Positions 6,693 to 30,727 of a stretch of DNA of 64,000 nt are shown here, piece by piece. The notes below the pieces were generated by a model. The model had not been told where the DNA came from. It saw only the letters and a program-made list of their open reading frames with translations, and did not search any database. Source of the stretch: Acetobacteraceae bacterium. GTDB taxonomy: Bacteria; Pseudomonadota; Alphaproteobacteria; Acetobacterales; Acetobacteraceae. The stretch spans positions 2,672,302-2,736,301 of the forward strand of contig CBDAQO010000002.1 in NCBI GenBank assembly GCA_965199105.1. The letters run 5' to 3'. How positions within the stretch are numbered: position 1 is the stretch's first letter; every line of letters starts with the position of its first letter. A program made the translations under genes and the position numbers.

Positions 6693-7923
6693 GCTCGCCC
6701 GACCCAGGCACCGGGCTGCTTGCGGGCAAGGCGCGCCAGGTCCAGGCCAGGCTGCCCAGCAGCATTCCCCCGGTCACCAGGAACACCCAGCGCAGCCCGA
6801 ACGCCGCCGCCACGGCGCCACCGGTGAGTGGGCCGAGCGAGCTGCCGAGGAAGCTGGCGGAGGCGGTCAGCCCCAGCACGGCGCCACGTTGCGCCGGTGG
6901 GGCGCTGCGGGCGATCAGCGCGTTGGCGGTTGGCAGGATGCCGCCCACGAACATCCCGACCCCGAACCGCTCGGCGACGAACACCCAATAGCTATGGGTG
7001 AACGCCTGCGGCAGGCTGAACAGGGCCGCGCCGAACAGGCTGATCAGCAAGACCCGGCGGTAGCCCAGCACGTCGCTGCGCTTGCCCAGGAAGGGCGAGG
7101 ACACGACGTCCGCCAGGCCGGTCACCGAGAAGGCGATGCCGCCCAGGGTGGCCAGGTTGCCCGCGTGGCCCACCAGCGACTGCACGTAGAGCGTCACCAC
7201 CGGCTGCACCGAGCGCACGCCGAGCTGGGCCAGCAGCAGCACGACGAACAGCGGCAGCAACCCGGCGGCGACCAGGGGGCGCAGGCCGGCCAGCCGGGGG
7301 CCGCGCTGGCCCGCCGGGTCCCGCCGGGGCGGGGCTTCGCGCACCAGCAACGCCGCTGCGATGGTCACGCTGGTGGCAATCGCGCTGGTGACGAAGAACG
7401 GCGCGCGGTTGCTGCCGGACCAGTCGGCGACCATGCCGCCCAAAAGCGGCCCCATCAGCCCGCCCACCAGTTGCCCGGTGCTGAGCCAGCCCAGCGCGTA
7501 GCCGAGGCGGTTGTCCGGCGTCTGGCTGCTGACCAGGGTGATGGCGCTGGCGGAGAAGCCGGAGAACGCGCCCATCACCACGCGCAGGGCGAAGAACTGC
7601 CAGACCGTGCGGGAGAGGCCCATCAGCGCGGTGAACAGGCTGATTGCGGCCATCGAGCGCAGCAGCATCGGCTTGCGTCCCTTGCGGTCTCCGAGGCGGC
7701 CCCAGAGCGGCGAGGTAAACGCGGCCATGAACGGCGTGGCGGCGTTGAGCACCCCCGTCCACAGGTCGATTGAGGCGCGGCCATGCACGCCGAGCTGCGG
7801 CAGGAACAGCGGCATGATCGGGCTGAGTACGGTGAAGGACAGGGTCATGAAGAACTGGACCCCGACCATCACCCAGAGCGCGCGGGCCTGGTCGGGCGGG
7901 GCCGTCGCTTCGGTGGGGTCCAT
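6667..7923 (-). CDS. MFS transporter (DHA1 drug/H+ antiporter-like)
   Basis: 418 aa with 12 predicted hydrophobic spans. The MFS loop motif GRLGDRKGRKPMLL lies between TM2 and TM3. Confidence 0.8.
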   Translation of the reverse strand: MDPTEATAPPDQARALWVMVGVQFFMTLSFTVLSPIMPLFLPQLGVHGRASIDLWTGVLNAATPFMAAFTSPLWGRLGDRKGRKPMLLRSMAAISLFTALMGLSRTVWQFFALRVVMGAFSGFSASAITLVSSQTPDNRLGYALGWLSTGQLVGGLMGPLLGGMVADWSGSNRAPFFVTSAIATSVTIAAALLVREAPPRRDPAGQRGPRLAGLRPLVAAGLLPLFVVLLLAQLGVRSVQPVVTLYVQSLVGHAGNLATLGGIAFSVTGLADVVSSPFLGKRSDVLGYRRVLLISLFGAALFSLPQAFTHSYWVFVAERFGVGMFVGGILPTANALIARSAPPAQRGAVLGLTASASFLGSSLGPLTGGAVAAAFGLRWVFLVTGGMLLGSLAWTWRALPASSPVPGSGEPKPTAGAT

Positions 7924-7975: not shown

Positions 7976-8680
7976 TCAGGCAGCGGTGAGGATGGCGTCC
8001 ACCCAGGCGGGCACGATTTCGGACGCGACGCCGTAATACTGCTCGTCGAAGGCGTGCGCGTTCTCGGACGGCTCGAGGTTGAGCTCGCAGGTGCGGACCC
8101 CGGCGTCGCGCGCCTGCATGACGAGGCCGGCGGCGGGATACACCGAGCCCGAGGTGCCGATGGCGACGAACAGGTCGGCGGTGGGGATGGCGCTGCTGAC
8201 CTCGGTGACGCCGAACGGGATTTCGCCGAACCAGACCACGTGCGGCCGCAGTGCCGGAGCGGCGCGGCAGGCGGTGCAGGCGACCTCGGCGCCGAGGTCC
8301 TCGCGCCAGGGGATGACGGCGTTGCAGTGCAGGCAGCGCGCCTTCAGCAACTCGCCGTGGATGTGCAGCACCGCTGGCGACCCGGCCTGTTCGTGCAGGT
8401 CGTCGACGTTCTGCGTCACCAACTGCAGCTCGCCGCCAGCCGCTTGCAACCCGATGGCGAGCCGCGCCAGGGCGAGGTGGGCGGCGTTGGGCTTGGCCAG
8501 CAGCAGGTCGCGGCGGCGGGCATTGTAGAACGCCTGCACGATGTCCGGATCACGCGCGAACGCCTCGGGGGTGGCGAGCCGGCGCGGGTCGAAACGCTGC
8601 CACAGCCCGTCCTTGTCGCGGAATGTTCCGAGGCCGCTCTCTGCGGAGATGCCCGCGCCGGTCAGCGCAATGATCTTCAA
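7976..8680 (-). CDS. cobB: NAD-dependent protein deacylase (Sir2 family, CobB)
   Basis: (L/M)KIIALTGAGISAESGLGTFRD..., QNVDDLHEQAG, HGEL, and a Zn-ribbon CLHC...CTAC. The upstream part of the 396-aa track ORF is non-homologous, so the in-frame TTG at 8680 is proposed as the start. Confidence 0.85.
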   Translation of the reverse strand: MKIIALTGAGISAESGLGTFRDKDGLWQRFDPRRLATPEAFARDPDIVQAFYNARRRDLLLAKPNAAHLALARLAIGLQAAGGELQLVTQNVDDLHEQAGSPAVLHIHGELLKARCLHCNAVIPWREDLGAEVACTACRAAPALRPHVVWFGEIPFGVTEVSSAIPTADLFVAIGTSGSVYPAAGLVMQARDAGVRTCELNLEPSENAHAFDEQYYGVASEIVPAWVDAILTAA

Positions 8681-8884
8681 GGAGAGATGCTCGCCATGGT
8701 CGGATGCTACACCCAGCGCGCCGCCGCCGCCCAGGGGCGAGGGGGCAAGATTTTCGCCGCGACCGTCTGCCGCCCGGAGGCGATCGTGCCGCGCTGGCCA
8801 CAGTATGTGGAATGTTTCGTGCCCGGCGCTGCCGGCGGTTCTCACGCCAAGGGCCGCCTGGCATCCTGTCGCCTGGAGGATGCG

Positions 8885-11800
8885 ATGCGCCACTGCTGTG
8901 TGCTGGTCTGGCTGCTGGTGATCGCCGGGTCGATGCCGCACACGGCGTTCGCGGCCGGAATTGATTGCAGCCGGGCGCATTCGGCCACCGAAAAGGCGAT
9001 CTGTGCCAGTCCTTCGCTGCTGGCGCTCGACCAGTCGGTCGCTGCGGCCTACGCCAACCACCTGGCGCAGAGCGCCGCGCCAGCCGAGCAGTCCCGCCAG
9101 GAGCTGCTGGCGTGGCTGCGACACCGGGATGCGGCGTGCAACGTGCCGGCCGGGTCGCTGCAGCAATGCCTGACGCGGGAGATGACGGCGCGGTTGGCGG
9201 CACTGGCGCCGCCCATGCCAGCCATCGCGGCGCCGACGCCGACGCCAGCCATCGCGGCGCCGACGCCGACGCCCGCGCTACCAACGCCCGAGCCACTAGC
9301 GCCCGTGCGCGAGGTCGCGGTGCCCTCGGCCGCCAACGCGCCGCAAGCGGCCGCGACGCTGGACGCCAGCAGCCTGCCGGCAAGTGGTGAGCAGGCCACG
9401 CTGCTGCATGTCAGCAGCCCGGGCCGCTTCACCATCCAGGCCCACAGCCAGACGGGTGCGGCGATCCAATTGGTGGATATGCTGACCGGTCCGGGCGAGG
9501 TCCAGGGCAGCGCCGGCGGGCAGGATGGCCGCATCGATGCCCTGCTGGATGTGGGCACGTACAAGGTCCGCGTCAGCTCGCCCCCGCAGCCGGTCGCAGG
9601 GACGAGCGCGGTGACGCTTGCCGTCACCGCCTTCACCGACGCCGCGCCGCCGCAAGCGCTGCCGCCGCCGGGCCAAGTGGTAAGCGCCACCCTGAACGAT
9701 GGGCAGCAGCGCGCTTTTTGGCTGGCAATGCCGCAAGCGGGCGAGTTGCGGATCGAGGCGGCGGGGCGCTCGCTGGCCGACCTGCAGCTCTGGCGCGACG
9801 GCCGCACCCTGGTGAACGCCCGGGTCACCACCGCCGAGGTGACGCCGGTGCGGACCCACGCGCTGACCGACTTGCGGCTGGTGGCGCAGGTGGAGCGCGG
9901 CACCTACCTCGCAGTGGCCTATGGCGGCGCGGCGCGGCGCTGGGCGGACAACGACCCGGCGCAGCCATTCACCCTGCGCGCCGGAACGTCGGACGCGCTG
10001 GCGGAGGGCTGGGCGACCGGCACCATCGGGCCGTTCGGCAGCGAGCTGTTCACGCTTCCCGCCACCACCGAGCGCGTCCGCCTGGAGCTGCCGGCGGCGG
10101 CGGCGGCGGCGGCAAGCCTGCAGGCGGGTGATCGCGTTGCGGCGATCGAGCCCACCAGCAGGGAGCCGTCGACGACCCTGGTCGTGCCTGAGGGCAAGCC
10201 GCACGTGTTGGAGCTGAGCGGCGCGGCCGGGCAGGCGTACCGGCTGCAGGCGTTGGCCATTCCGGCGCAGCAGGCCATTTCGACCCCGGGCACCTATTGG
10301 GTGTCGGCCGTGACGGCGGGCGCCGGCGGGGAGGAGGTGCCGCCGAGCGTGGTGCTGGAACTGTCCGGGCGGGACGTCAAACCGGCGCGGGTGGTGGCGG
10401 CGTTCGAGCCGGTGCTGGCGGCGGGGGCGGGCTGGCGCGGCCGGTTCAACCTGCGTGGCCGGACCGTGATGCTGTTCCAGAACGCGGCCGGCGGCGAGGT
10501 CGCGGTGCGCAACACGGGCGGCCAGCTCCGGTCGGGCAACGGCGACGCCTACGACCTGCCGGCCGGCTACTCCGAGGTCGAGGTCGCGCCGGAAGCGGGC
10601 CGGCAGGTCCCGGTCGACCTGGTGGTGGGGCCGCCGGGGCTTGACCCGCCGCCGACGCCGCCCTTGCCGGCCAACCCGGTGTTGCCGCTCGGAGTGCAGA
10701 CGGTGGCGCCGGGTCAGCTCCTCACGCTGCTGCCGTTCCAGGCGCCCGGCGTCTCGGTCGGGCTGTCGGCGCGGCGCGTGCCGGTGGCGCTGGCGGCCGG
10801 CCCGCTGTCCGCGACCATGGTGGCGGGCAGCAGCCTGGCCGTTCCGGTCGCCGTGGCTCCTGGCGGCACGCTCGTGGTGCGGGAGGGCGGTAGCGAGCCG
10901 GTCGCCTACACCATGCAGGGCAACACGGTGACGATCGCCCCCGCCAACCGGGCGCGGACGGTGGTGCTGGCGTGGCGGCCGAACCCCTTGCCGCCGCCCG
11001 ACATCCCCGCGCCGCCGCCGGTGGCGCAAGGGGCGAGCTTGGCGGCCGGGCAGCCGGTGTTCTTTGACCTTGGCGAGCACGACCAGCGCGGGTTCGCCCT
11101 CACGGTGCCGGAAGGCGGCGTCTGGCGGGTGGAGACGCTGGGGCGCCTGCACACGACGGGGCTGCTGTCGACGGCGTTCATCCCGTCGCTGGGCCAAGCC
11201 GACGGGAATGGCGCCGGGCTGAACATGCTGCTGCAATCCGTGCTGCGGGCTGGGCGCTACCGGGTCACGGTGTCGGCGCTGGACTCGTCCGGCCATCTCG
11301 GGCTGTCGGCCAGCCCGGCGCCCCTGCTCGCCGGCGCGGCGCTGCTGCCCGGCGGGAGCGTGCGCGCCAGCTTGGCCGCGGGTACGGCGGCGACGTTCCC
11401 GATCGACATCCCCAAGGCGGCCGGCAGCGACATGGTGCGCTACCATTTCGACGTCGCCGCGCTGCAGGCACCATGGCTGGGGCGGATCGAGGACGCGGAA
11501 GGCTGGCCGCTCACCCGCACCGGCCCGCTCGACGGCACCGAGCTGGTGCTGGCCGCCGGGCACTACCGCATGGTGGTGGAGCCGGACGCGGTGAGCCGTC
11601 AGGTGGTGGCGCGGTTGCAGCCGATTGTGCCGGCCGTGGCGATCACCTTGCACGGGCCGCATCCGCTCGCCTTCAGCGCCACCGCCAACGCCGTGTGGCG
11701 CGAGCCCTCCGCCGCCGACCAGCCGCGCACGCCGGATCAATGGACGTTCCGCCTCGACGGCCCGGCGACGGTGACGATCGGGCTCGGCGCCGGGATGGTG

Positions 11801-14371
11801 GGCGAGCTCTACCGGGAGGGTGCGGCGGCGGCCGTGACGCGCGTGAGCGACACCGCGACGCTGAAGCTGCCGGCCGGGGCCTACCGGCTGGAAGCGACCA
11901 GCCTGGGGCGCAACGACCGGCTGGCCTACACCGCGTCGCTCAGCAGCGAGGCGCTGCAGCCCGGCGTGGCGCGCTCGGTGACGCTGCCGGCAACGGTGGA
12001 GTTCGCCATCGCCAGTGCGCGGGTGGTGAGCGTGACCAGCTTCGGCCATGTGCCGGTGAAGGCGGTGCTGCGGACCGCGGATGGGGCGGTGATCGGCCGC
12101 TTCGGAGCGAGGGCGGACGACTGGAACATCGCCGTGTCGCAGCCGCTGGCCGCCGGCGCCTACAAGCTGGACCTGGCGCCCGCTGTGCCGCCTGACATCA
12201 CGCCGACCAGCCCGCCGCCGGTGCCAGCGGCGACCGACGCGGACAGCGACAGCAGCGTGTCGAACAACGATGACGCGCTGGCCTCGAGCGATAACGCGCA
12301 GGCCCCAAGCGACAACGCGCAAGCCTCAAGCGACGCCTCGCAGGCCTCGGGCGACGACGCGCAGGCGCCGGAACCACCGCCGCTCACCACCGAGTTGCGG
12401 CTCGCGCTGCCCCCTGCACAGGACGCGGTGCCCGCCCCCACCGGCCTCGCGGCGCTGGAGCAGTCCGGCGTCCACGTGCTCACTTTGCCGCAACCGGGCG
12501 CGGGTAGCCTGGTGGTGGCGCAGGCGCAGTCCAGCGCGGCCGTGGTGCTGACGCTGGAGCGGCAGCGGTCGGATGGCTGGCAGGTGGTGGCCATCGGCCA
12601 GGGGTTGCGCCCGGTCATCGCCAGCCCGGCCGACGCGGACGCGGCTGCCTGGCGGGTGCAGGTGTGGGCGGTGGATGGCGGGCCGGAGCCGATCCAGGCG
12701 GCAGCGTTCGCCACGGAGCTGCCGGTGCAGGCGCCGGGTGCGGTCTCGCTGGCACCGCTCGCGGGCGGGCTGGCGGTGGGGCGGGTGCATCTGCCTGCGC
12801 CTGGCATGGCGGCCGTGGCTGGTGCGCCGGTGGACCTGCTTGCGGGGGGCTGGCCCGGCCATGACCTGGCGCCAGTCGAGGCCGGCCTGATCCTGCCGCT
12901 GGGGCAGGACATTTGGCTGCTCGCCCGCACTCCAGCCAGCGTCCAGGTCACGCCGGACGCGGTGGCGCCCGGGCAGAGCGTGACGGTGTCGCTGCCGGCC
13001 GGGATGGTGGCGACGCTGCCCGCGCTCACTGCCGCGCCGGGAACGGTGGCGTTGTGGCGAGCGGAAAGCGGGCTCGGCCTGCCGGGGCTCGGCGCCGCCA
13101 TGGGGGTCGCCGACGGCAGCGTCCTCACCCTCGCCAACGGCCCGGTGCCGCTGCGCAACGCCGCCGGCCCGGACGCCTTGCGCGTGCGGCTGACCCGGCT
13201 GGAGGCGGCACTGCTGCCGGCGCAGGCGGTGGGTGGCGCGCTGCAGGCGACGGTGCCGCCGGGCAAGGCCCTGCCACTCACCCTGCCGCCCGGCAGCAAG
13301 CAGATCCTGGTGAGCCTGGCGCCCGGCTTGGCGGCCATTCCCAGCCAAGGTGCGGCGGTCTGGACGGCCGGGGCGGCGCTCTCGCGCACCATCACCGGGG
13401 ATTGGACCGGCCTGCTGCTGGTGAACACTGGCAGCGCGCCGGCGCCGGCCGGCGTGGCGCTGCAGCCGGCGCCGGCGGCCGTGACGCTGCGGCCCGGCAT
13501 GGTGGTGAAGCGGTTCTTCGGCGCGGACGGCTCGCTGGAACTGAGCGTCGAGCCGGCGGCCGGGGCCAAGCTGGTCGCAGCGGGCACGGCCAGGCTCACC
13601 GTGATCACCCATGGTGGCCAGGTGACAACCGGCAGCACCATCGCCCTGTCCGAGCCGGCCCGCGTGGTTGTGGACGCCAAGGCGGGTGCGGTCGCGGTGT
13701 GGGAGGTTGCGGACGGCGTGTCGCCCTGGCCCGCCATTCCCGCGCAACCGGCTGCGCTGCCGGCCCGGCTGGCGCTGTCCGGCCCCGCCATGGCGCTTGC
13801 GATCGACCCCGGCGGCCCGGCGCTGCTGCGCGCCCGCACCACCGCCCCCGTGCTGCTGGCGCTGGCGCAAGCGGGGCAGGCGGGCGACCCGGCGTTGTTC
13901 CCCGATGGCGCCGAGGTCAGCCGCATGGTGGCCGGCGCCACCGAGCTGCGGCTCTACTCGCCCGATGACGGCCCGCTGTCCGGCACGCTGGAGCTGAGCG
14001 CGGAGCCGGTGACGCCGGTGGGCGAGGGGCTCGGCGCGCCCGTGACGGTGGCTCCGGGCGGTGCCGCGGTGTTCGGCTTCACCCTGGCCAAGGCCGCCAG
14101 CATCGGCGTGGGGGTGCGCGCGACGCCGGACCAGGTGTCGGTCCGCCTGCTGGACGCCGCGACGGGCCGGCGCTTGGGCGAGGGGGTGGCGCAGTTGCAG
14201 TCGCTGCCCGCCGGCGCCTATGCGCTCGAGGTGCAGGTTCCGCCCGGTGCACCCACCACGGTGGTGCGGCCGGCGGTGGTCGGCATCACGCCACGCGGCG
14301 ACGGGCCGCCGCCCGACGTTGTGCAATCCTACCTCGAACTGGTCGGCATGAAGCCGCAAGGGGCGCCGTGA
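8885..14371 (+). CDS. Giant exported protein: signal peptide, DUF1311/LprI-like four-Cys head, then a Cys-free multi-repeat beta-module body
   Basis: ATG at 8885 inside the 2286-aa track ORF. The upstream part of that ORF is antisense to the MFS gene and cobB. Signal-like MRHCCVLVWLLVIAGSMPHTAFA, DUF1311 pattern (IDCSRA..EKAICASPSLLALDQSV..Y...W..RDAAC), and a recurrent xxGxY(K/R/A)(L/V) motif at least seven times. Confidence 0.8.
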   Translation: MRHCCVLVWLLVIAGSMPHTAFAAGIDCSRAHSATEKAICASPSLLALDQSVAAAYANHLAQSAAPAEQSRQELLAWLRHRDAACNVPAGSLQQCLTREMTARLAALAPPMPAIAAPTPTPAIAAPTPTPALPTPEPLAPVREVAVPSAANAPQAAATLDASSLPASGEQATLLHVSSPGRFTIQAHSQTGAAIQLVDMLTGPGEVQGSAGGQDGRIDALLDVGTYKVRVSSPPQPVAGTSAVTLAVTAFTDAAPPQALPPPGQVVSATLNDGQQRAFWLAMPQAGELRIEAAGRSLADLQLWRDGRTLVNARVTTAEVTPVRTHALTDLRLVAQVERGTYLAVAYGGAARRWADNDPAQPFTLRAGTSDALAEGWATGTIGPFGSELFTLPATTERVRLELPAAAAAAASLQAGDRVAAIEPTSREPSTTLVVPEGKPHVLELSGAAGQAYRLQALAIPAQQAISTPGTYWVSAVTAGAGGEEVPPSVVLELSGRDVKPARVVAAFEPVLAAGAGWRGRFNLRGRTVMLFQNAAGGEVAVRNTGGQLRSGNGDAYDLPAGYSEVEVAPEAGRQVPVDLVVGPPGLDPPPTPPLPANPVLPLGVQTVAPGQLLTLLPFQAPGVSVGLSARRVPVALAAGPLSATMVAGSSLAVPVAVAPGGTLVVREGGSEPVAYTMQGNTVTIAPANRARTVVLAWRPNPLPPPDIPAPPPVAQGASLAAGQPVFFDLGEHDQRGFALTVPEGGVWRVETLGRLHTTGLLSTAFIPSLGQADGNGAGLNMLLQSVLRAGRYRVTVSALDSSGHLGLSASPAPLLAGAALLPGGSVRASLAAGTAATFPIDIPKAAGSDMVRYHFDVAALQAPWLGRIEDAEGWPLTRTGPLDGTELVLAAGHYRMVVEPDAVSRQVVARLQPIVPAVAITLHGPHPLAFSATANAVWREPSAADQPRTPDQWTFRLDGPATVTIGLGAGMVGELYREGAAAAVTRVSDTATLKLPAGAYRLEATSLGRNDRLAYTASLSSEALQPGVARSVTLPATVEFAIASARVVSVTSFGHVPVKAVLRTADGAVIGRFGARADDWNIAVSQPLAAGAYKLDLAPAVPPDITPTSPPPVPAATDADSDSSVSNNDDALASSDNAQAPSDNAQASSDASQASGDDAQAPEPPPLTTELRLALPPAQDAVPAPTGLAALEQSGVHVLTLPQPGAGSLVVAQAQSSAAVVLTLERQRSDGWQVVAIGQGLRPVIASPADADAAAWRVQVWAVDGGPEPIQAAAFATELPVQAPGAVSLAPLAGGLAVGRVHLPAPGMAAVAGAPVDLLAGGWPGHDLAPVEAGLILPLGQDIWLLARTPASVQVTPDAVAPGQSVTVSLPAGMVATLPALTAAPGTVALWRAESGLGLPGLGAAMGVADGSVLTLANGPVPLRNAAGPDALRVRLTRLEAALLPAQAVGGALQATVPPGKALPLTLPPGSKQILVSLAPGLAAIPSQGAAVWTAGAALSRTITGDWTGLLLVNTGSAPAPAGVALQPAPAAVTLRPGMVVKRFFGADGSLELSVEPAAGAKLVAAGTARLTVITHGGQVTTGSTIALSEPARVVVDAKAGAVAVWEVADGVSPWPAIPAQPAALPARLALSGPAMALAIDPGGPALLRARTTAPVLLALAQAGQAGDPALFPDGAEVSRMVAGATELRLYSPDDGPLSGTLELSAEPVTPVGEGLGAPVTVAPGGAAVFGFTLAKAASIGVGVRATPDQVSVRLLDAATGRRLGEGVAQLQSLPAGAYALEVQVPPGAPTTVVRPAVVGITPRGDGPPPDVVQSYLELVGMKPQGAP
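9217..9270. repeat. Exact 27-nt tandem duplication inside the giant gene
   Basis: gccagccatcgcggcgccgacgccgac x2, in frame, encoding AIAAPTPTP x2. Confidence 0.9.
12287..12370. repeat. Degenerate 4 x 21-nt in-frame repeat (SDNAQAP-like acidic linker) inside the giant gene
   Basis: agcgataacgcgcaggcccca / agcgacaacgcgcaagcctca / agcgacgcctcgcaggcctcg / ggcgacgacgcgcaggcgccg. Confidence 0.8.
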
Positions 14372-17300
14372 GCATGGTCAAGGCCTTGAGGGCGGCTGGC
14401 GCCCTGCTGTGCGCGCTGATGGTGATGGCGCAGGCGCCGCTGGACCAGCTCAAGCGGGCGGATGGCGCCCATGTGCTGCCGGACCATTTCCTCCGCCGCT
14501 GGGACCCGGTGACCATCCTGCTCGACGGCGACGCCGGGCCAGCGCAGGGCGGCCCGGAGGACGCGCCCGAGCGCTTCGTGACGCTGGCGCCGGCCAAGCC
14601 CGGGTCCTGGCGCTGGATCGGCCGCCGAACCCTGCAGTTCCGCCCCACCGAGCCATGGGAGCCGTTGCGGCGCGAGGCGGTCACCGCGGCCGGCGCCACC
14701 ACCACGCTGATCCCGCTGCTGCCGGTGCCCACCGCCACCGGCCCTAGCGACGACCCCAACGGCACGGCCAACCTCGACACCATCGCGCTGAGCTTCGACC
14801 AGCCGGTGGACATGGCCGCACTCGCCCGCCTGCTCACCATCACCCTCACCCCGCAACCCGGCGTCACGGGTGTGGGCACGCAGACGCTGACGGCGGCCGA
14901 TTTCACCGTGCGCCCGGTGGAGCGCGCGAAACCCAGCGACCCGCAGACCTACCTCGTCACGCTGCGCACCCCGCTGCCGCAGGGGCGGATCGCCACGCTG
15001 CGCCTGCTACTGTCGGACGAGCCCGGGCTGGACGACCCGATCTTTTCCCTCCCGCTGCACTCGGCGTCGCCGTTCGCGGTGACCGACCGCTACTGCGGCG
15101 GCGGGTTCAACCACAGCCTGGTGGATGGCGTGGTGCAGTGCGACCCGGACCCGGACGAGACGGCGCAGAAGCGCGCCATCGTGTTGCAGTTCTCCGCCCA
15201 GCCCGCGCCCGTCGACATTGTGCAGGGGCGTGACGCGCTGCGTTTCACCCCGCCGGTGGATGGGCTCGAGCTCACCACCGGTGACGACAACAGCTTGACC
15301 ATCACCGCGAGCTTTGCTGCCGACCAGGTCTATCACTTGTCGGTCGCCGCAGGGGCGTTGACGAATATCGGTGGGCGCCCGCTCGCCGTCGCCGTCGAAA
15401 GCGACTTCCGCTTCCAGCCCAGTGCCCCGGCGCTGGCGTGGGACACGCAGGACGGGATGGCGGAAGCGCTGGGGCCGCAGATGGTGCCGTTGCGCGGGCA
15501 TGGCTACGACCATGCCGACTTGCGGATCTACCCGATCGACCCGCTGTCGCGTGATTTCTGGCCGTTTCCGAGCGGGGCTGTCTCGACCAGCGACAGCCAG
15601 TCCCCGCCGCTGCCGGGCCGCGAGCCGCGCCGCTACGTGGAGCTGGCGCCGATCAGCGCGGACGCCGTGATGGCGCGCATCTACGCCCTCGGCTCCCCGG
15701 CGGTGAGCGACCTCTATACGCTGCCGATCCATCGCGGCGGCCTGGACGCGAAGTTCGGGCTCGACCTCGCCCCCAGCCTCGCCCGCATCGCCGGGCCGCG
15801 CATGCCGGGCACCTACCTGCTCGGGTTGCGCACCGTGGACGGGCAGACCCGGCAATGGGCGCGGCTGCAGGTGACGGATTTGGCGCTCTCGACGGTGGAG
15901 GCGCCGGGCCAGGTGCGTTTCGTGGTCACCTCGCTGGCCACGGCGCAACCGGTGGCGGGCGCGGAGGTGCGGCTGGAAGGCGTGCGCGACGGCCAGTTCG
16001 GCACGCTGGCGCAGGGGGTGACGGATGCGGCCGGCGGTTGGACGCTGGCCGGCCAGATCGCCACCGGGCGCGACGGCAAGGCGGCGTTGCGCCGATTGGT
16101 GGTGACAAAGGCGACCGACACGCTCGTGCTGGACCCGGCGCGTGGCCCGCAAGTCTACGCGCAGGGACTATGGAGCCCGCCCGACACGCCCTGGCTCAGC
16201 CGCCTCACGGCCAGCCGGGCCAGCACGCGCGAGCCGGCGCAAACGCTGTGCCACGTGTTCACCGAGCGGCCGATCTACCGCCCGGAGGAGCCGATCCTGA
16301 TCGCCGGGATGATCCGCCGCTACCAGCCCGGCAGCCTGGCCTTCGCCACCGGCAGCGGCGACGTGGTGGTGACCGCGCCGGACGACCAGGAATGGCGCCA
16401 GCCGGTCACCCTGGACGAGGTCGGCGGCTTCCACGTGCGCTTCGACCAGAAGACCACGGCGACCGGCGAGTACAAAATTGCCTACCAGCCGGCGCATGGC
16501 GAACCCTGCGGGGCCTTCACGGTGCAGAAGCAGGCGTACCGGCTGCCGACCTTCGAGGTGGTGCTGACCGCCCCCGCCCACGCCGCCCTGGACGCGCCAT
16601 TCGACGTCGACCTGTTGGCGCGGTTCTTCGCCGGCGGCACGCTCACCGACCGCCCGATCACCTGGCGGGTGACGCAGTTTCCGTTCGCCTGGACGCCGCC
16701 GGGTCGGGACGGCTTTCTGTTCTCGTCGGACAGCCGGTTTTCCGGCGACAGCAGCTTCCGCTCCACCCCCGTGCTCGGGCGGGACGCCACGACGGATGCC
16801 GGCGGTTCGGCGCAACTGACGCTGGACCCGACGATCGAGCCCACTGCGCAGCCGCGGCAATACGTGGTGGAGGCGACCGTGACGGGCGACGACGACCAGC
16901 AGGTGCGCGGCGTGCAGCGCATCACCGCGCTGCCGCCGTTCGTGCTGGGAGTGAAGGTGCCGCGCTACCTGCCGCAGCCTGGCGCCATCGAGCCCGAAAT
17001 CGTGGCGCTGGATGGCGACGGCCATGAGGTGACGGGCCTGGCGATGACCGCGAAGCTGGTGCACCGGCAGTGGAACTCGGTGCTGGAGGCGAGCGACTTC
17101 GCCCAGGGTGCCGCCAAATACCAGACCCAGGTGCTCGACCAGACAGTGGAGGAACGCCACGTCGTCAGCACGGCGGCGGCGCAGACGGTGCATTTCGGCG
17201 CAATGGAGGCCGGCGTCTACCTGGTGGAGCTGAGCGCAACCGACCGCGCCGGGCGCACCCAGACGGTCCGGGTGGACCTGTTCATGGCCGGCACCACGCC

Positions 17301-20094
17301 CGTCACCTGGGTGCAGCCGCCATCGCAGACCGTGACGGTCAGCACCGAGCACGAGAGCTACGACCCGGGGCAGACCGCCACGCTGCTGATCCAGAGCCCG
17401 TTCCAGACCGCGCGCGCCTTGGCCATCGTGGAAGAGCCGGGCCAGCCATTCCAGTATGACTGGGTGGATGTGCGCGACGGGGTCGGGCGCTACGACGTGG
17501 CGATCCGCAAGGAGCAGGGTCCGCGGCTGCCGGTGCATTTCCTGCTGATGCGCGGGCGGCTGCCAGGCCCACCGGTCCTGAACGCGCCGTTCGACCAGGG
17601 CAAGCCGGTGACGCTGGCGGCGACGCATTGGGTCACGGTCACGCCGGTGCAGAACAAGGTGAAAGTGAGCTTTGAGGCGCCGGCCAGCGCGCGGCCGGGC
17701 CAAGCGATCGACCTCGTGCTGCATTTGGCGGACGCGGCGGGGCGGCCGGTGGCGGGCGAGGCGACGGTGTGGCTGGTGGACCAGGCCGTGCTGTCGCTCG
17801 CCCATGAACGGTCGCTCGACGCATTGCCCGCCTTCCTCGTCGAGCGGCCGAGCCGCCTCTCGGCGCGGGACACGCGGAGCATGGTGCTCGGCGTCATCCC
17901 GCTGGCCGAGACACCCGGCGGAGATACGGGCGCCGGCGAACCCCCTGGTGTGCCGAACATCACCGTGCGCAAGAACTTCACTCCGGTGCCGTTCTATGCG
18001 CCGCGGGTGCAGGTGGGGCCGAGCGGGGCGGCCACGCTGCACGTGACGCTGCCCGATTCGCTCACCGTGTTCATGCTGCGGGCGGAGGCGATCAGCGGGC
18101 CGGACCGGTTCGGCTTCGGCACCGGGGAACTCCGCGTTCGCCAGCCGGTGGTGGCGCAGGCGGTGCTGCCCCGCTTCGTGCGGCCCGGCGACGTGTTCAC
18201 CGCCGGGTTGCTCGGCCGCGTGGTGGAGGGCCCGGGCGGCGCGGGCGTGGCGGCGATCTCCACCGACAACCTCACGGTGCAAGGCGCGGCGGAGCAGGCG
18301 GTGCGCTGGGACGGGCCGCAGCCGGTGCGCAGCCTCTACACGGTGAGCGTGCCGGAGCCCAAGGACGGCGCGACGCTCGCGCGGGTCCGCTTCCTGCTGC
18401 AGCGCAGCGCCGACCAGGCCGGCGACGCGGTGCAGATCGACCTGCCGATCCGGCCCGACCGGCCGGTGGTGCATCGGCGTGACCTGCTGGTGGTGGGGGC
18501 GGCCAACGCCCTGCAAATCCCCGCACTGGCCGACCCGGTGCGCCCGCCGAGTTATTCCCGCAGCGTCACCCTCGCCACCGACCCGGTGGTGACCCGGCTG
18601 GTGGCGGGGCTGAACCTGCTGGTGCGGCCGGCGGTCGGCGGCACGGCGCAGCGCATCGACCTCGCCTTGGCGGAGCTGCCGCTGCTGCCGTTCACCTCGA
18701 TCCTGGATGCGGCGGGCTTGCGCGACCGGCTTGCTGGGGACGTGGCGGCGGCGCAGACGGCGATCCGCCAAGGCCTCGACGACGATGGGCTGGTGGCGTT
18801 CTTCCCCAACAGCCGCGGCATGGTCTGGCTCACCGCGAGCGCCTTGCGGGTGATGACCGAGGCCGGCCAGGCTGGTTTGCCGGTGGACAAGGCAGTGGCG
18901 GACCGCCTGGTGCAGGTGCTGCGGAACTCGTTGCGCAGTGACTATCCGCACCTGCTCGACGACGAGGAATGGTTCGAGCGGGTCTCCGCGCTTTACGCCC
19001 TGACTGGCGCCGGGCAGGCCGCGCCGGGATACGCCGATGAGCTGGCCCGCCGCGCGGCGGAGTTGCACACCGGGGCGCTGGCGACGGTCGCCACCGTTCT
19101 GGCGCGGCTGCCGGACGGCAACAAGCGCCTGCTGGGGGAGGTGCTGGACACGCTGTGGCAGCGGGTGAACGTGATCGAGCGCGACGGCAAGCCGGTCTAT
19201 CAGGGCCTGGCCGACCAGGGTGGCGGCGCGCTCATCCTGCCGTCCGAGGCGCGCAGCCTGGCGCAGACGCTCGAGGCGGTCGCCAGCGCCACGCCGGACG
19301 ATCCGCGGCTGAGCGTGCTGCGGGCCGGGTTGCTGGGGCTGTCGACCGGGCAGGGCTGGGGCAGCACCAACGCCACGTCGGCCGCGTTGCAGGCGCTGGC
19401 GGCGTCGTGGCAGCCGCCGGCTGCTCCGGTGGACGCGCTGGTCACGCTGCCCGACCGGCCGGTGGAGGGCGTGTTGGACCATGCCCACCCGCTGCTGCAG
19501 GCCATCACCGCGGCGCCGGGGCCGATCCACGTCCAGGCGGCTTCGGGCATCGCCGTGTTGGCCAGCACGGACTACGTGCCGCTGCAGCCGGGCGCCCTCG
19601 CCACGCCGGACCAGCGCGGACTGATATTGACCCGCACGCTCTACCGGGTGCCGCGGGCGCAAGGCGCGAACCAGCCGCCGATGGCCCGGCTGGACGCTGG
19701 GCCGGACGGCGCGGTGCACCTGGCAGTGGGTGACGTGGTGGAGGAGGTGGACGAGGTGGTGACGCCGGAGGATCGGCCGCAGGTGGCGTTGCGGCTGCCG
19801 GTCGCGGCCGGGCTGGAGCCGCTCAACCCGGCGCTGGCCACCGCCACCGCGGACGCCACGCCCTCCGCCGCGCCGACGCTGGCGCCGTCCTGGTCGTCGA
19901 TCGGCGATGACGAGGTGGTCGCGGTGTGGCTCGAGCTGCCGCGCGGCACGTTCGTGTTGCGCCAACGGCTGCGGGCGACCACGGCGGGCAGCTTCACCCA
20001 GCCGCCGGGCAGCGCCGAGTTGCTGTATCAGCCGGGCGTGAACGGCAGCTCCGCCGGCGTCCGCATCGTCGTCGCGCCGACCGGCGTGCCGTGA
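14368..20094 (+). CDS. Bacterial alpha-2-macroglobulin family protein, thioester-less (no CxEQ)
   Basis: 1908 aa. A2M hallmarks: TERPIYRPEEPI (MG-domain motif), VRKNFTPVPFYAPRVQVGPSGAATLHVTLPDSLTVFMLRAEAIS (A2M domain) and GWGSTNATSAALQAL (TED/complement-like region). GTG start overlaps the upstream stop (GTGA); an ATG at 14374 is the alternative start. Confidence 0.85.
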   Translation: MSMVKALRAAGALLCALMVMAQAPLDQLKRADGAHVLPDHFLRRWDPVTILLDGDAGPAQGGPEDAPERFVTLAPAKPGSWRWIGRRTLQFRPTEPWEPLRREAVTAAGATTTLIPLLPVPTATGPSDDPNGTANLDTIALSFDQPVDMAALARLLTITLTPQPGVTGVGTQTLTAADFTVRPVERAKPSDPQTYLVTLRTPLPQGRIATLRLLLSDEPGLDDPIFSLPLHSASPFAVTDRYCGGGFNHSLVDGVVQCDPDPDETAQKRAIVLQFSAQPAPVDIVQGRDALRFTPPVDGLELTTGDDNSLTITASFAADQVYHLSVAAGALTNIGGRPLAVAVESDFRFQPSAPALAWDTQDGMAEALGPQMVPLRGHGYDHADLRIYPIDPLSRDFWPFPSGAVSTSDSQSPPLPGREPRRYVELAPISADAVMARIYALGSPAVSDLYTLPIHRGGLDAKFGLDLAPSLARIAGPRMPGTYLLGLRTVDGQTRQWARLQVTDLALSTVEAPGQVRFVVTSLATAQPVAGAEVRLEGVRDGQFGTLAQGVTDAAGGWTLAGQIATGRDGKAALRRLVVTKATDTLVLDPARGPQVYAQGLWSPPDTPWLSRLTASRASTREPAQTLCHVFTERPIYRPEEPILIAGMIRRYQPGSLAFATGSGDVVVTAPDDQEWRQPVTLDEVGGFHVRFDQKTTATGEYKIAYQPAHGEPCGAFTVQKQAYRLPTFEVVLTAPAHAALDAPFDVDLLARFFAGGTLTDRPITWRVTQFPFAWTPPGRDGFLFSSDSRFSGDSSFRSTPVLGRDATTDAGGSAQLTLDPTIEPTAQPRQYVVEATVTGDDDQQVRGVQRITALPPFVLGVKVPRYLPQPGAIEPEIVALDGDGHEVTGLAMTAKLVHRQWNSVLEASDFAQGAAKYQTQVLDQTVEERHVVSTAAAQTVHFGAMEAGVYLVELSATDRAGRTQTVRVDLFMAGTTPVTWVQPPSQTVTVSTEHESYDPGQTATLLIQSPFQTARALAIVEEPGQPFQYDWVDVRDGVGRYDVAIRKEQGPRLPVHFLLMRGRLPGPPVLNAPFDQGKPVTLAATHWVTVTPVQNKVKVSFEAPASARPGQAIDLVLHLADAAGRPVAGEATVWLVDQAVLSLAHERSLDALPAFLVERPSRLSARDTRSMVLGVIPLAETPGGDTGAGEPPGVPNITVRKNFTPVPFYAPRVQVGPSGAATLHVTLPDSLTVFMLRAEAISGPDRFGFGTGELRVRQPVVAQAVLPRFVRPGDVFTAGLLGRVVEGPGGAGVAAISTDNLTVQGAAEQAVRWDGPQPVRSLYTVSVPEPKDGATLARVRFLLQRSADQAGDAVQIDLPIRPDRPVVHRRDLLVVGAANALQIPALADPVRPPSYSRSVTLATDPVVTRLVAGLNLLVRPAVGGTAQRIDLALAELPLLPFTSILDAAGLRDRLAGDVAAAQTAIRQGLDDDGLVAFFPNSRGMVWLTASALRVMTEAGQAGLPVDKAVADRLVQVLRNSLRSDYPHLLDDEEWFERVSALYALTGAGQAAPGYADELARRAAELHTGALATVATVLARLPDGNKRLLGEVLDTLWQRVNVIERDGKPVYQGLADQGGGALILPSEARSLAQTLEAVASATPDDPRLSVLRAGLLGLSTGQGWGSTNATSAALQALAASWQPPAAPVDALVTLPDRPVEGVLDHAHPLLQAITAAPGPIHVQAASGIAVLASTDYVPLQPGALATPDQRGLILTRTLYRVPRAQGANQPPMARLDAGPDGAVHLAVGDVVEEVDEVVTPEDRPQVALRLPVAAGLEPLNPALATATADATPSAAPTLAPSWSSIGDDEVVAVWLELPRGTFVLRQRLRATTAGSFTQPPGSAELLYQPGVNGSSAGVRIVVAPTGVP

Positions 20095-22214
20095 GGCGGG
20101 TTGGCCGGCTGGCGCTCGCCGGGTGCGCCGCCGGGCTGGCCTGGTATGGCGCGGCGGTGGTGCAGGACGCCCATTTCGGCGCACCCGCCGCCACCGCGAT
20201 CGTGACGGACGCGCAGGGCCGCTTCATCACCCAAGCCGGCGACGTCAGCCTGCGGCCCGGCGGTGCGCGCCAGGTCGATTACGGCTACTGGCCGGTTGCC
20301 GCGCCGGACCGGGTGGTGCGGGCGACGCTGGCGCTGGAGGACCGGCGGTTTTGGCGCCACCCCGGCGTCGACCCGCTGGCCGTGCTGCGCGCGGGTTGGC
20401 AGCATTTGCGCGGCGGCCGCGGCTCGGGGGCATCGACCTTGGCCATGCAGGTGGCCCGCATGCAGCATCCGCGGCCGCGCACGCTATGGGCCAAGGCGGT
20501 GGAGGCGGGCACGGCGGTGGCGCTGACCGCGCGCTATGGCCGGGCCGCGGTGCTGGCGCACTACCTGCAGCTCGCCCCCTACGGCGAGGGCAGCCACGGC
20601 ATCGCCCACGCGGCGGAGTGGTATTTCGATCGCCCGGCAGCCGATTTGAGCTGGGCGCAGGCGGCGTTGCTGGCGGCCATTCCGCAGGCGCCGGGCGTGA
20701 TGGCGCTGCGCCATGGTGGCCTGCCGCGCGCCGCCCGCCGTGCCGCCGCGGCGCTGCAGGCGATGGGCTTGCCGGCGGACACGCTGGCACAGGCGCTGGG
20801 CGAGCTGGCGCAAATCCGCGTCGACCCGGCGCCGCGCCGCCCGCCCGACCTGCAGGTGGTGCTGCGGCTGGAACGGCTGGCGCGGGCGGCTGGGGGCACG
20901 CATCTGCGCGCCACGCTGGACCTCGGGATGCAGCATTGGGTGAGCCAGCTTGCCGCCGCCCAGCTCGGCACCTGGCGGCCGGAGGATGCGCAGCAGGTGG
21001 CGGTGATGGTGGTGCAGCGCCACAGCCGCGCCGTGTTGGCCGACGTGGCCTCCGCCGGCTACAGCAGCACGCCAGGGGGCGCGATCGATTTCAGCGCTGT
21101 GCTGCGCTCGCCGGGCAGCACGCTCAAGCCGTTCCTCTACGCTCGCGCGCTCGACCGGGAGCTGATCACGCCGCGCACCATGCTGGCCGACGCGCCGGAA
21201 GCCGCGGCGGGCATCGCCAATGCCGACCACGACTTCCTCGGCCCGCTGCTGCCGCGCCAGGCGCTGGCGAACTCGCGCAACGTGCCGGCGGCGGCGCTGC
21301 TGCGGCGCATCGGGCTGGGAGACGGGTTTGGCTTCCTGCGCAGCCTCGGCCTGCACGAGCTCGACCAGGGCGCGGAGCATTACGGCCTGGCGATGGCCAT
21401 CGGCGCGCTGCCGACCAGCCTGGACCGGCTGATGCGCGGCTACGAGACGCTGGCCGAAGACGGCGTGGACGACCGGCTGGCCTGGTTCGCCGAGGCCCCG
21501 CAAGCGCCCCGCCGGCTGGTTTCGGCCGGGTCCGCGCGGCTGATTGCCGACTTCCTGAGCGACCCGCTAGCGCGGCTGCCGAGCTTCCCGCGCTACGGCT
21601 CATCCGAGTTCCCGATGGCGGTGGCGCTCAAGACCGGCACGTCGCAGGGCTACCGCGACGCCTGGACGTTCGCCTGGTCGCAGGATTACCTGGTGGGTGT
21701 GTGGTTCGGCCGGCCGGATGCGGGCCCGATGTCGCAGCTCTCCGGCGCGCGCGCTGCGGCGGGGCTGGCGCAGGCGGTGTTGTTGCGGCTGCATGGCCTG
21801 AACCGGAGCGACCTGGTGGCCGGCCGCTTTGCCGCACCCGCCGGGTTGCAGCGCGCCGAAGTCTGCACCAGCACGGGCTTGGCCGGCAGCGGTTGCGACG
21901 CCCGGCTCACCGAGTGGGGCCGCGGCCCGGCGCCGACCCCGCCAGCGCCGCGCCTGGCGATCGTGACCCCCGAGCCGGACACGCATGTCTGGCGCAACCC
22001 GGACGCGCCGGCGGCGCTCAACCGGCTGGTGCTGCGCGCCGCCGTGGACCCGCCGGTGCCGCAGATCGTGTGGCTGGTGGATGGGCAGCCGGTGGCGCTG
22101 GCCGCTCCGGACGCGCCGCTGTATTGGCCGATGACGCCGGGCCGGCACCGCTTCCAGGTGCGGCTGCCGCTGCAGCCGGATGCGTCCGGCCCGCTGTTCG
22201 TGGTGGTGGAGTGA
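20091..22214 (+). CDS. pbpC: Penicillin-binding protein 1C (bifunctional transglycosylase/transpeptidase)
   Basis: Glycosyltransferase motifs ALEDRRFWRHPGVD and GASTLAMQVAR. Transpeptidase motifs SPGSTLKPF (SxxK), SRN and KTGTS. PBP1C-type C-terminal domain. GTG 20091 overlaps the A2M stop (GTGA). Confidence 0.9.
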   Translation: MRRVGRLALAGCAAGLAWYGAAVVQDAHFGAPAATAIVTDAQGRFITQAGDVSLRPGGARQVDYGYWPVAAPDRVVRATLALEDRRFWRHPGVDPLAVLRAGWQHLRGGRGSGASTLAMQVARMQHPRPRTLWAKAVEAGTAVALTARYGRAAVLAHYLQLAPYGEGSHGIAHAAEWYFDRPAADLSWAQAALLAAIPQAPGVMALRHGGLPRAARRAAAALQAMGLPADTLAQALGELAQIRVDPAPRRPPDLQVVLRLERLARAAGGTHLRATLDLGMQHWVSQLAAAQLGTWRPEDAQQVAVMVVQRHSRAVLADVASAGYSSTPGGAIDFSAVLRSPGSTLKPFLYARALDRELITPRTMLADAPEAAAGIANADHDFLGPLLPRQALANSRNVPAAALLRRIGLGDGFGFLRSLGLHELDQGAEHYGLAMAIGALPTSLDRLMRGYETLAEDGVDDRLAWFAEAPQAPRRLVSAGSARLIADFLSDPLARLPSFPRYGSSEFPMAVALKTGTSQGYRDAWTFAWSQDYLVGVWFGRPDAGPMSQLSGARAAAGLAQAVLLRLHGLNRSDLVAGRFAAPAGLQRAEVCTSTGLAGSGCDARLTEWGRGPAPTPPAPRLAIVTPEPDTHVWRNPDAPAALNRLVLRAAVDPPVPQIVWLVDGQPVALAAPDAPLYWPMTPGRHRFQVRLPLQPDASGPLFVVVE

Positions 22215-23826: not shown

Positions 23827-27120
<3,294 letters not shown>

Positions 27121-27589: not shown

Positions 27590-27988
27590 CTACCCGCGCA
27601 CCACGAGCAAGCCCAGATGCTGCTCCATGTGGTCGAAATCGCGGTCGTCGTGCAGCAGCTTCAGGCGGCGGGCGAGGCAGAAGGTGCCGATGATCAGGTC
27701 CGCGGTCTTGCGGATGGTGACGCCACGGGAGCGCAGGAGGCGGTAGTTGCGTGCGGCTTGCACGGCCAGATCGGTGTCCAGCATCGGCATTATGACGAAT
27801 GTCCGCATCCGGCGTTCCATTGCAGCGGCGCGAACATCGTTCTTCATGCCTTGCAGGATTTCCAGTAGGACGACGTCGCCGACGATGATCTGTTCTCGGC
27901 TTGAACCGGCCTCACGCAGCAACGCCACTTTCGGCGAGGCATTGTTGCGCAGGAGATCAATCCAAACCGAGGTGTCAACAACGATCAG
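27590..27988 (-). CDS. vapC: PIN-domain toxin VapC
   Basis: The reading frame upstream of the track start (27928) continues as (L)IVVDTSVWIDLLRNNASPKV, which is the canonical PIN N-terminus with the first catalytic Asp. Including it needs a CTG (27988) or ATC start that overlaps the vapB stop (CTGA). Confidence 0.7.
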   Translation of the reverse strand: MIVVDTSVWIDLLRNNASPKVALLREAGSSREQIIVGDVVLLEILQGMKNDVRAAAMERRMRTFVIMPMLDTDLAVQAARNYRLLRSRGVTIRKTADLIIGTFCLARRLKLLHDDRDFDHMEQHLGLLVVRG

Positions 27989-28197
27989 TCCTGGCGACCT
28001 TCGCGCATGGCGTCCAAGTCGCCATCCCAGCCAAAGCCTGCCATTTCATCCATGGCAATCTTCTGCTGGCGTAACAGAACCACCAAGCGCAGGGCGTCCT
28101 CCACCGTCGCTTTCTTGGTGGGTTGGCCGGTCGCAGCCATGGCGTCCGCCAACAAGGTGTCGTCGATATCGATGTTCGTGCGCATGGTGTCCTCCAT
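27985..28197 (-). CDS. vapB: VapB-type antitoxin (MRTNIDID... family)
   Basis: MEDTMRTNIDIDDTLLADAMAATGQPTKKATVEDALRLVV... matches the type II VapB antitoxin family. The start may instead be the second Met (28185). Confidence 0.75.
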   Translation of the reverse strand: MEDTMRTNIDIDDTLLADAMAATGQPTKKATVEDALRLVVLLRQQKIAMDEMAGFGWDGDLDAMREGRQD

Positions 28198-28223
28198 GTG
28201 TATGAAATTGATCTACTATACAC
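28198..28223. promoter_or_regulatory. Possible vapBC operator (inverted repeat in an AT-rich patch)
   Basis: GTGTAT-N14-ATACAC immediately upstream of vapB, within the only AT-rich stretch of this region. Confidence 0.3.
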
Positions 28224-28249
28224 ATCAAGCGATGGAAGGCCAATCACGA

Positions 28250-30530: not shown

Positions 30531-30539
30531 CGTCGCAGC

Positions 30540-30554
30540 GAACATATACAGAAC
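30540..30554 (-). promoter_or_regulatory. Alphaproteobacterial LexA (SOS) box, GTTC-N7-GTTC
   Basis: The plus strand reads GAACATATACAGAAC, which is GTTCTGTATATGTTC on the coding strand. It ends 9 nt upstream of the proposed imuA start. Confidence 0.75.
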
Positions 30555-30727
30555 GAAGTTGGATTGGGAAGGCAATCCCATTCCACCAGCGTTACAGCGG
30601 ACAGAAAGCGTCGTTAACTCAGCGCGATGGATTGTTTTCCTGCCGTGCCGGGTGCGACTCGCAGGTTAACCCGGCGCTAAGCATGATGCGCTAGAGTCTG
30701 GCCGGATGATCCAGGCCTCCGGTGACC

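Follow-up and report, generated by a model that had tools for sequence, protein, structure and literature searches.

A giant beta-rich protein as an apparent third component of the periplasmic alpha-2-macroglobulin-PBP1C operon

Bacterial alpha-2-macroglobulins (A2Ms) are sorted in the literature into Type I, thioester-bearing lipoproteins with a CxEQ motif that occur with PBP1C, and Type II, thioester-less proteins encoded in the six-gene mag operon. The locus described here lies in a stretch of 64,000 nucleotides (nt), called the window, from an Acetobacteraceae bacterium (GenBank assembly GCA_965199105.1, contig CBDAQO010000002.1, positions 2,672,302 to 2,736,301 of the forward strand). Three open reading frames (ORFs) on one strand of the window encode a Sec-exported giant protein of 1828 amino acids (aa), a 1908-aa A2M and a 707-aa PBP1C. 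It appears that the well-known A2M-PBP1C periplasmic operon has a third, undescribed component, a giant protein gene that is found directly upstream of the A2M gene in nearly all related loci.

Organization of the locus

The unit and the region preceding it are composed as follows.

8681-8884, no strand: divergent intergenic region between cobB and the giant gene, 204 nt, with a Shine-Dalgarno sequence GGAGGA at 8875-8880
8885-14371, + strand: giant partner gene, 1828 aa, whose body matches no Pfam or NCBIfam model
14368-20094, + strand: long-form, non-lipoprotein A2M gene, 1908 aa, with a signal peptidase I (SPase-I) signal peptide
20091-22214, + strand: PBP1C gene, 707 aa (Pfam, NCBIfam and motif check)

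Both junctions read ccGTGAg, the GTG start codon overlapping the preceding TGA stop codon by 4 nt. For the A2M, an alternative ATG start at 14374 would replace the overlap with a 2-nt gap. An earlier note on this DNA, made from the letters alone, had described three same-strand genes joined by GTGA overlaps, each opening with an export or anchor segment and separated from cobB by a divergent gap of about 200 nt. All of this was borne out: the genes form one tightly packed unit, their products carry a Sec signal peptide (giant), an SPase-I signal peptide (A2M) and an N-terminal transmembrane segment (PBP1C), and the gap to cobB (Sir2; minus strand, 7976-8680), which is divergent from the giant gene, measures 204 nt.

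The giant gene ATG at 8885 follows the GGAGGA sequence and begins a Sec signal peptide (..AFA/AG). The public gene call (P0001, 1891 aa) starts 63 codons further upstream (8696-8884). This extension has no counterpart in homologues and crosses the divergent cobB promoter region. As the homologue alignments begin at the Met of 8885, which opens the signal peptide, the public call is probably too long, through start-codon misannotation.

No sigma-70-like promoter was found by a consensus scan of the intergenic region, and no conserved dyad promoter, of ECF/EcfG (extracytoplasmic function) type or other, upstream of the giant gene in 73 related loci, where only G+C-rich noise was seen. G+C content is 69-77% across the region. 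The earlier note had also considered that an internal promoter or terminator might uncouple the genes; within the three-gene unit, sigma-70 promoters and intrinsic terminators occur at chance level only, in scans that are weak at 72-76% G+C.

Conservation of the giant-A2M pair

A search with the giant protein retrieved 275 relatives, all of about 1700-1900 aa. In a species-level genome scan, the best 80 loci of 197 giant relatives were used for synteny; they belong to Acetobacteraceae, Rhizobium, Methylocystis, Methylobacteriaceae, Labrys, Xanthobacteraceae, Stellaceae and Inquilinus. An A2M gene lies directly downstream of the giant gene, on the same strand, in 78 of these 80 loci (tblastn), the other two being truncated contigs. 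The two genes overlap by 4 nt in 52 of the 78 pairs and by 1 nt in 3, are separated by at most 30 nt in 21 and by about 100 nt in 2. Therefore, as the same overlap recurs among related pairs, the coupling seen in the window is not due to chance.

The giant and A2M genes are inherited together. Indeed, the pairwise distances of the two proteins correlate with r = 0.977, and those of all three proteins correlate strongly. The giant evolves fastest, with a mean pairwise identity of 45%, against 60% for the A2M and 58% for PBP1C.

The family extends well beyond these genomes. A profile of the N-terminal body, compared with 1.84 billion representatives, matched 1303 clusters at E<=1e-3 and 697 at E<=1e-30, the representative clusters of the family being defined at 50% identity. 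The giant A2M-partner family can be defined by a signal peptide, two beta-rich halves with invariant motifs, a C-terminal GPPxDVVxxYLxLAG(L/M)K helix and a gene directly upstream of that of a long-form A2M; the window giant has all of these features. Wider members occur in Endothiovibrio, Thiodiazotropha and Kaarinaea (Gammaproteobacteria), Rhodocyclaceae and Gallionellaceae (Betaproteobacteria), Desulfobacteraceae and Dongia, so that the module is not limited to the Alphaproteobacteria, in which the earlier note had proposed to look for it. In six distant contexts (Endothiovibrio, Dongia, Desulfobacteraceae, Rhodocyclaceae and two metagenome contigs), the giant gene is each time followed by an A2M gene, with a 4-nt overlap in three cases and with pbpC next in four of the five that have enough room. 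The expectation that giant homologues would be syntenic with A2M-pbpC is thus confirmed by adjacency to the A2M gene in 78/78 readable genome loci and 6/6 distant ones, pbpC being present in most.

For the converse, A2M-centred view, 72 metagenome loci were used in which the A2M is complete at its N-terminus and no less than 600 nt of upstream sequence is available. A giant-like ORF precedes the A2M gene in 66 of them, and pbpC comes next in 52 of the 53 loci with enough downstream sequence. The giant-A2M pairing is near-universal in this A2M lineage, not absolute.

The flanking genes differ in every lineage and the Rhizobium copies are plasmid-borne. The unit is a self-contained module whose invariant core is the giant and the long-form non-lipidated A2M, usually with PBP1C. 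These variable flanks and plasmid locations would be compatible with horizontal spread as a block, and the adjacency could then be mere co-transfer of neighbours devoid of any functional link. However, gene order, strand and start/stop overlap are kept across classes of Pseudomonadota and in Desulfobacterota at 35-45% protein identity, a conservation that goes far beyond neutral linkage and makes co-transfer alone hardly credible.

The third gene is less constant. It lies downstream in 57 genome loci, with an A2M-pbpC junction that ranges from -4 to about +700 nt, and 11 loci, mostly from one Acetobacteraceae clade, have no pbpC within at least 4 kb. These data bear on an alternative in which the giant would be a peptidoglycan-associated scaffold or activator of PBP1C, as LpoA and LpoB are for PBP1A and PBP1B, the A2M being a co-transcribed protease guard. 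Such a role would fit the presence of pbpC as third gene in most loci, the lack of any known activator or laboratory-condition role for PBP1C (PMC7554673), the OmpA-type peptidoglycan-binding insert of the Dongia giants and the finding that ScwA, a DUF1311/LprI-domain protein, modulates peptidoglycan enzymes (PMC7933661). However, the giant is tightly coupled to the A2M, not to pbpC with its loose junction; the 11 loci keep giant and A2M without pbpC, and some loci have A2M and pbpC without a giant (L150). A PBP1C activator is therefore considered unlikely.

Two contigs labelled as betaproteobacterial, L011 (Janthinobacterium lividum metagenome-assembled genome, MAG) and L026 (Burkholderiaceae MAG), cluster tightly with Acetobacteraceae in the A2M tree, their neighbours there being L007/L046 and the pbpC-less clade. 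These contigs are more probably mis-binned than a sign of betaproteobacterial hosts.

The giant protein

The giant can be divided into the following segments; AF2 stands for AlphaFold2 and pLDDT for the predicted local distance difference test.

8885-8956, + strand: Sec signal peptide, residues 1-24, ..HTAFA/AG, no lipobox (translation and homologue alignment)
8957-9205, + strand: accessory DUF1311/LprI-like four-helix head, residues 25-107, conserved Cys C28, C40, C85 and C95, AF2 helices at model residues 10-83
9206-9376, + strand: Pro/Ala-rich linker, residues 108-164, pLDDT dip at model residues ~90-120
9377-12190, + strand: N-terminal beta-body, residues 165-1102, about 8 predicted CUB/PPC-like jelly-roll sandwiches (AF2, Foldseek, family profile)
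12191-12400, + strand: acidic Ser/Asp/Ala/Gln low-complexity inter-half linker, residues 1103-1172, variable between lineages
12401-14299, + strand: C-terminal beta-body, residues 1173-1805, about 6 predicted beta-sandwich domains (AF2, Foldseek)
14300-14368, + strand: conserved C-terminal helix motif GPPPDVVQSYLELVGMKP, residues 1806-1828, AF2 helix at model residues 646-655, ending at the A2M start codon

Invariant motifs of the N-terminal body in the homologue alignment include GGLYRVETLGR, RLEDAEGWP, GHGPH, WREP and SLGRNDR. Alphaproteobacteria, Gammaproteobacteria and Desulfobacteraceae share the C-terminal motif, GPPxDV(V/I)xxYLxLAG(L/M)K; like it, the mature N-terminus of the A2M (..VPDxFLRRWDPVT..) is kept across classes. 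Imperfect heptad-like repeats (SDNAQAP SDNAQAS SDASQAS GDDAQAP) are found in the acidic linker, whose length and composition differ strongly even among close relatives.

AlphaFold2 models were built for the two halves separately from 96-sequence alignments. Residues 25-1105 gave a pLDDT of 90.8 and a predicted template modelling (pTM) score of 0.84, and residues 1165-1828 a pLDDT of 94.4 and a pTM of 0.88. As the pTM values are high, the halves are predicted to be compact rather than extended. The models indicate that the giant consists of two rigid, compact arrays of beta-sandwiches joined by a variable linker and is not a string of beads.

Foldseek comparison with the PDB gave only domain-level matches, to neuropilin a1a2b1b2, the s3a-s3b collagen-binding domains of ColG, the CUB domains of PCPE-1 and MASP, and HA70. 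The giant domains superpose on ColG s3a-s3b, PCPE-1 CUB and neuropilin a1a2b1b2 with a Foldseek probability of 1.0, whereas the giant as a whole has no global match in the PDB (TMq at most 0.21) and no attached protease or catalytic domain. Some homologues match the Pfam PPC model; the giant family profile retrieved nothing among PDB sequences (best E 0.077).

The protein had been called a repeat protein. This description holds at the level of the fold, that of beta-sandwich arrays, and not at that of sequence: no clear tandem repeats were found and internal repeats are barely detectable, the best pair (787-902 versus 995-1101) having an E of 1.5e-4.

Several possible relationships were discarded. 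Comparison by hhalign with the A2M profile gave a probability of 0.7%, which rules out a diverged A2M paralogue. Profile scores against all E. coli yfa genes are negative in bits, which rules out a relationship with Mag/Yfa partners and agrees with the earlier statement that the giant resembles none of them. PADLOC gave no match to a known anti-phage defence component, and NCBIfam gave none to the giant either.

The resemblance to extracellular binding modules (CUB, ColG collagen-binding/PPC, neuropilin, HA70), the PPC matches of some homologues, the very large size and the Sec export could also suit a secreted or surface adhesin-like binding protein, with the A2M guarding it or the cell against proteases during export or use. 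However, neither the window nor related loci hold any beta-barrel gene or any gene or signal of type I, II or V secretion systems, the high pTM values point to compact bodies and not to an extended fibre, and both the OmpA insert and the disulfide-bonded DUF1311 head point to the periplasm. An adhesin-like role is accordingly judged quite unlikely.

The A2M and PBP1C

The features of the other two products are listed below.

15871-16488, + strand: bMG3 (residues 502-591) and MG2 (residues 629-707) domains of the A2M (Pfam)
17335-18201, + strand: bait-region (residues 990-1144) and A2M (residues 1216-1278) domains (Pfam)
18637-18651, + strand: degenerate thioester site GGTAQ, residues 1424-1428, at the position of the ancestral GCTEQ (alignment column, tree)
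19618-20034, + strand: bMG10 domain, residues 1751-1889 (Pfam)
20301-20765, + strand: transglycosylase domain of PBP1C (PF00912), which follows an N-terminal transmembrane anchor
21105-21656, + strand: transpeptidase domain of PBP1C (PF00905)
21945-22160, + strand: BiPBP_C domain of PBP1C (PF06832)

As a single sequence, the A2M has no match in the PDB; a profile of 24 orthologues matches E. coli YfhM/ECAM (E 9e-21) and the Salmonella A2M (8e-19). The family hidden Markov model scores YfhM at 76.2 bits and YfaS at 32.7 bits. By hhalign, residues 481-1906 align to residues 259-1652 of YfhM with a probability of 99.3%; since this alignment begins at residue 481, the first 480 residues or so are taken to be lineage-specific. 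The signal peptide is of SPase-I type and is followed by the conserved mature N-terminus ..VLPDHFLRRWDPVT... No lipobox is present in the window A2M, and the 65 other orthologues also have AxA-type SPase-I signal peptides, a single lipobox match among the 66 being chance-like. To judge from its sequence, the window A2M is an N-terminally extended, non-lipidated protein of the YfhM-like (Type I) lineage. A MagD/YfaS-type protein in the wrong context is contradicted by these scores, and the loss of the thioester is secondary.

The A2M had been described as Cys-free. It contains five Cys (residues 15, 243, 258, 628 and 714), all but the first being invariant in the family; what is missing from the window protein is the CxEQ thioester motif, both Cys and Glu being lost.

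In PBP1C, the catalytic motifs are intact (EDRRF83, STLKP343, SRN395, KTGT514). By a wide margin, the best NCBIfam model is TIGR02073, with 425.3 bits (E 5.6e-127), under the equivalog cut-off of 494.2.

Variable parts of the module

In the window, the Pfam match of giant residues 28-105 to LprI/DUF1311 (PF07007) reaches 19.4 bits for a cut-off of 22. The recognition of this head in the earlier note is nevertheless supported by many orthologues that score above threshold, by the four conserved Cys and by the predicted four-helix fold. Like M. tuberculosis LprI, Salmonella ScwA and E. coli YecT, it would be a small all-helical exported domain with four conserved Cys; unlike them, it is an N-terminal appendage on a body of about 1650 residues and is dispensable in most of the family. 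Among close relatives, 104 of 119 carry it, but only 22 of 117 representative clusters have it, as do 15 of 111 relatives of a gammaproteobacterial member. It is absent in Methylocystis, Inquilinus, Endothiovibrio and Desulfobacteraceae, and in headless giants the signal peptide joins the body directly. The DUF1311 head is, as far as homologues indicate, an accessory module of some lineages, the ~1650-residue body being the conserved part.

This distribution bears on the model put forward in the earlier note, a defence unit with three activities, with the head as an inhibitor of lysozyme or another glycosidase, the A2M as protease trap and PBP1C in charge of wall repair. The presence of the head in the window and in most close relatives is in its favour, as is the fact that defence by A2M and PBP1C is the accepted view (PMC5764988). 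However, most of the family lacks the head, and the module persists all the same. Furthermore, lysozyme inhibition by LprI has been attributed to its MliC domain; LprI/DUF1311 alone is without shown inhibitor activity, and the DUF1311-only ScwA gave no lysozyme protection (PMC7933661). Pfam detects no MliC domain in the giant. A glycosidase-inhibitor-like head is thus not a defining part of the system, and the model over-reads this head, leaves 90% of the giant unexplained and is silent on its conserved body. It is considered very improbable.

The inter-half linker also varies: acidic and of low complexity in the window, it is absent in Endothiovibrio and in Dongia holds an inserted OmpA-family domain, a peptidoglycan-binding domain of type PF00691 that scores above the Pfam threshold. 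The Dongia giants (L088, 10001-16027; also P0307 and P0379) have 2008-2012 aa and carry the DUF1311 head in addition to the OmpA insert; in L088, an M48 peptidase gene comes after pbpC.

The thioester is the third variable feature. Of 66 genome A2M orthologues, 23 have Cys at the thioester position, 32 have Gly and 11 have Ser, and parsimony on a neighbour-joining tree requires at least 5 changes of the Cys position. The whole G-C-x-E-Q motif is kept in 23/66 genome relatives and in 66/79 metagenome relatives (~84%). As GCTEQ is retained in distant members and in the majority of metagenome copies, the ancestral A2M was thioester-bearing (Type I) and the GGTAQ of the window is a derived loss.

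The pbpC-less Acetobacteraceae clade (L003, L005, L006, L008, L017, L019, L022, L042 and L065) retains the giant/A2M overlap. Its readable members have the most degenerate thioester, D-G-[TAP]-[AVI]-Q, with both Cys and Glu gone except in L065 (DGTEQ).

Comparison with known A2M systems

The window system shares several features with the Type I systems E. coli YfhM/ECAM-PbpC and Salmonella Sa-A2M. Its A2M has the same architecture of macroglobulin (MG) domains, bait region, thioester-domain (TED) region and MG10, pbpC lies directly downstream and most relatives keep GCTEQ. However, an obligate-looking partner gene of 1700-2000 aa is located upstream, where E. coli has sseA. The A2Ms of the window lineage are about 250-350 aa longer, their N-terminal ~480 residues having no alignment to ECAM. 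Furthermore, the window A2M has an SPase-I signal peptide, whereas ECAM and Sa-A2M are lipoproteins with a lipobox, and it has lost the thioester Cys and Glu (GGTAQ).

Like the Type II systems (P. aeruginosa MagABCDEF, E. coli yfaPQSTA), the window encodes a thioester-less, non-lipoprotein A2M together with a partner. In Pseudomonas, the partners bind and stabilise the A2M, and the thioester-less MagD traps proteases non-covalently and needs its operon partners for stability (PMC5764988). Type II is the best model, by analogy, of how the giant might act. However, the window locus holds no homologues of MagA, B, C, E or F, its A2M resembles YfhM more than YfaS, it has one giant partner instead of five small ones, and pbpC is present.

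No description of the giant family or of the giant-A2M arrangement was found in the literature searched, which did not cover the original genomic survey (Budd et al. 2004). A paper on a Gallionellaceae A2M-PBP1c mentions no partner, although the giant family has a member in Gallionellaceae. Curated libraries do not name the arrangement either, in agreement with the earlier failure to match it to a described system: NCBIfam has no match to the A2M any more than to the giant, PADLOC has none, and the RefSeq names of the trio are generic (lysozyme inhibitor LprI family protein, MG2 domain-containing protein, transglycosylase domain-containing protein). The locus belongs to a large third A2M arrangement, absent from the papers searched, in which the A2M descends from Type I, has no lipid and is extended at its N-terminus; almost always, its gene follows, in translational coupling, that of an all-beta protein of about 180 kDa that lies outside the sequence models of Pfam, NCBIfam and the PDB.

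Possible role of the giant

On a narrow balance of probability, the giant is a periplasmic structural partner of the non-lipidated long-form A2M within a two-to-three-gene periplasmic module. Both proteins have cleavable Sec signal peptides and neither has a lipid or membrane anchor. As the OmpA insert and the disulfide-bonded DUF1311 head are envelope/peptidoglycan modules, a periplasmic, wall-proximal location is suggested. According to this proposal, the two proteins would be produced in fixed proportion and would form a periplasmic hetero-complex, in which the giant would stand in for the lipid anchor of ECAM, or for the role that MagA/B/F play toward MagD. It would position and stabilise the A2M trap close to the peptidoglycan, and may supply part of the enclosure around the bait-cleaving protease. 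Enclosure or positioning by a partner could explain why covalent capture by the thioester is dispensable in lineages such as that of the window. PBP1C would keep its role in the classical model, that of mending glycan strands once the envelope is damaged.

If the giant is indeed part of the trap, this would change the view of periplasmic protease capture and offer an explanation for how thioester-less A2Ms function. It would also give a handle on the role of PBP1C and make a large family of 'hypothetical proteins' testable.

A bolder form of the proposal is speculative and, at present, doubtful. Close to the peptidoglycan, the giant and the A2M could form a heteromeric cage of about 385 kDa around the bait-cleaving protease, this enclosure by a partner making the thioester dispensable and explaining its repeated loss; the module would then be a third class of bacterial macroglobulin system. 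In bacteria, two proteins would then correspond to the tetrameric cage of metazoan A2M, and the class would span Alpha-, Beta- and Gammaproteobacteria and Desulfobacterota.

Several observations weigh against a structural partnership of giant and A2M. Six of the 72 A2M-centred loci (L105, L133, L143, L146, L150 and L170) have no upstream giant and, in L135 (6890-10000), one of the 66 others, an insert of about 3 kb parts a giant of 2051 codons from the A2M; the A2M can therefore exist without an adjacent giant. All four readable giant-less A2Ms keep CTEQ, as do about 84% of the loci in that set, and the association between giant and thioester loss is without statistical support, giant-less loci being too few. 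Finally, CUB/PPC-like arrays, as modelled here, are also typical of secreted binding proteins, so that an extracellular site is possible in lineages without the OmpA insert.

In giant-less loci (L143, 1-10000; L150, 1-6643), the upstream ORFs are aminotransferase-like and FAD-oxidoreductase-like, and pbpC is present in L150. The L135 insert consists of two unrelated ORFs (7035-7889, minus strand; 8173-9159, plus strand) and represents a natural uncoupling of the pair.

Neighbouring genes

The other neighbours in the window include a major facilitator superfamily (MFS) transporter gene and, downstream of the unit, genes for a PHO4 phosphate transporter and dnaE2, both of which are unrelated to it. 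The dnaE2 gene (23827-27120, minus strand) encodes an error-prone polymerase that matches NF004225 with 1375 bits, above the cut-off. Two same-strand ORFs lie upstream of it: one matches ImuA weakly (52 bits, below the cut-off), and the other, of 505 aa and without family match, could be ImuB; the ORFs of this region lie at 27975-29492 and 29682-30581 (both minus strand). From these matches, dnaE2 and the two upstream ORFs look like an imuA-imuB-dnaE2 mutagenesis cassette.

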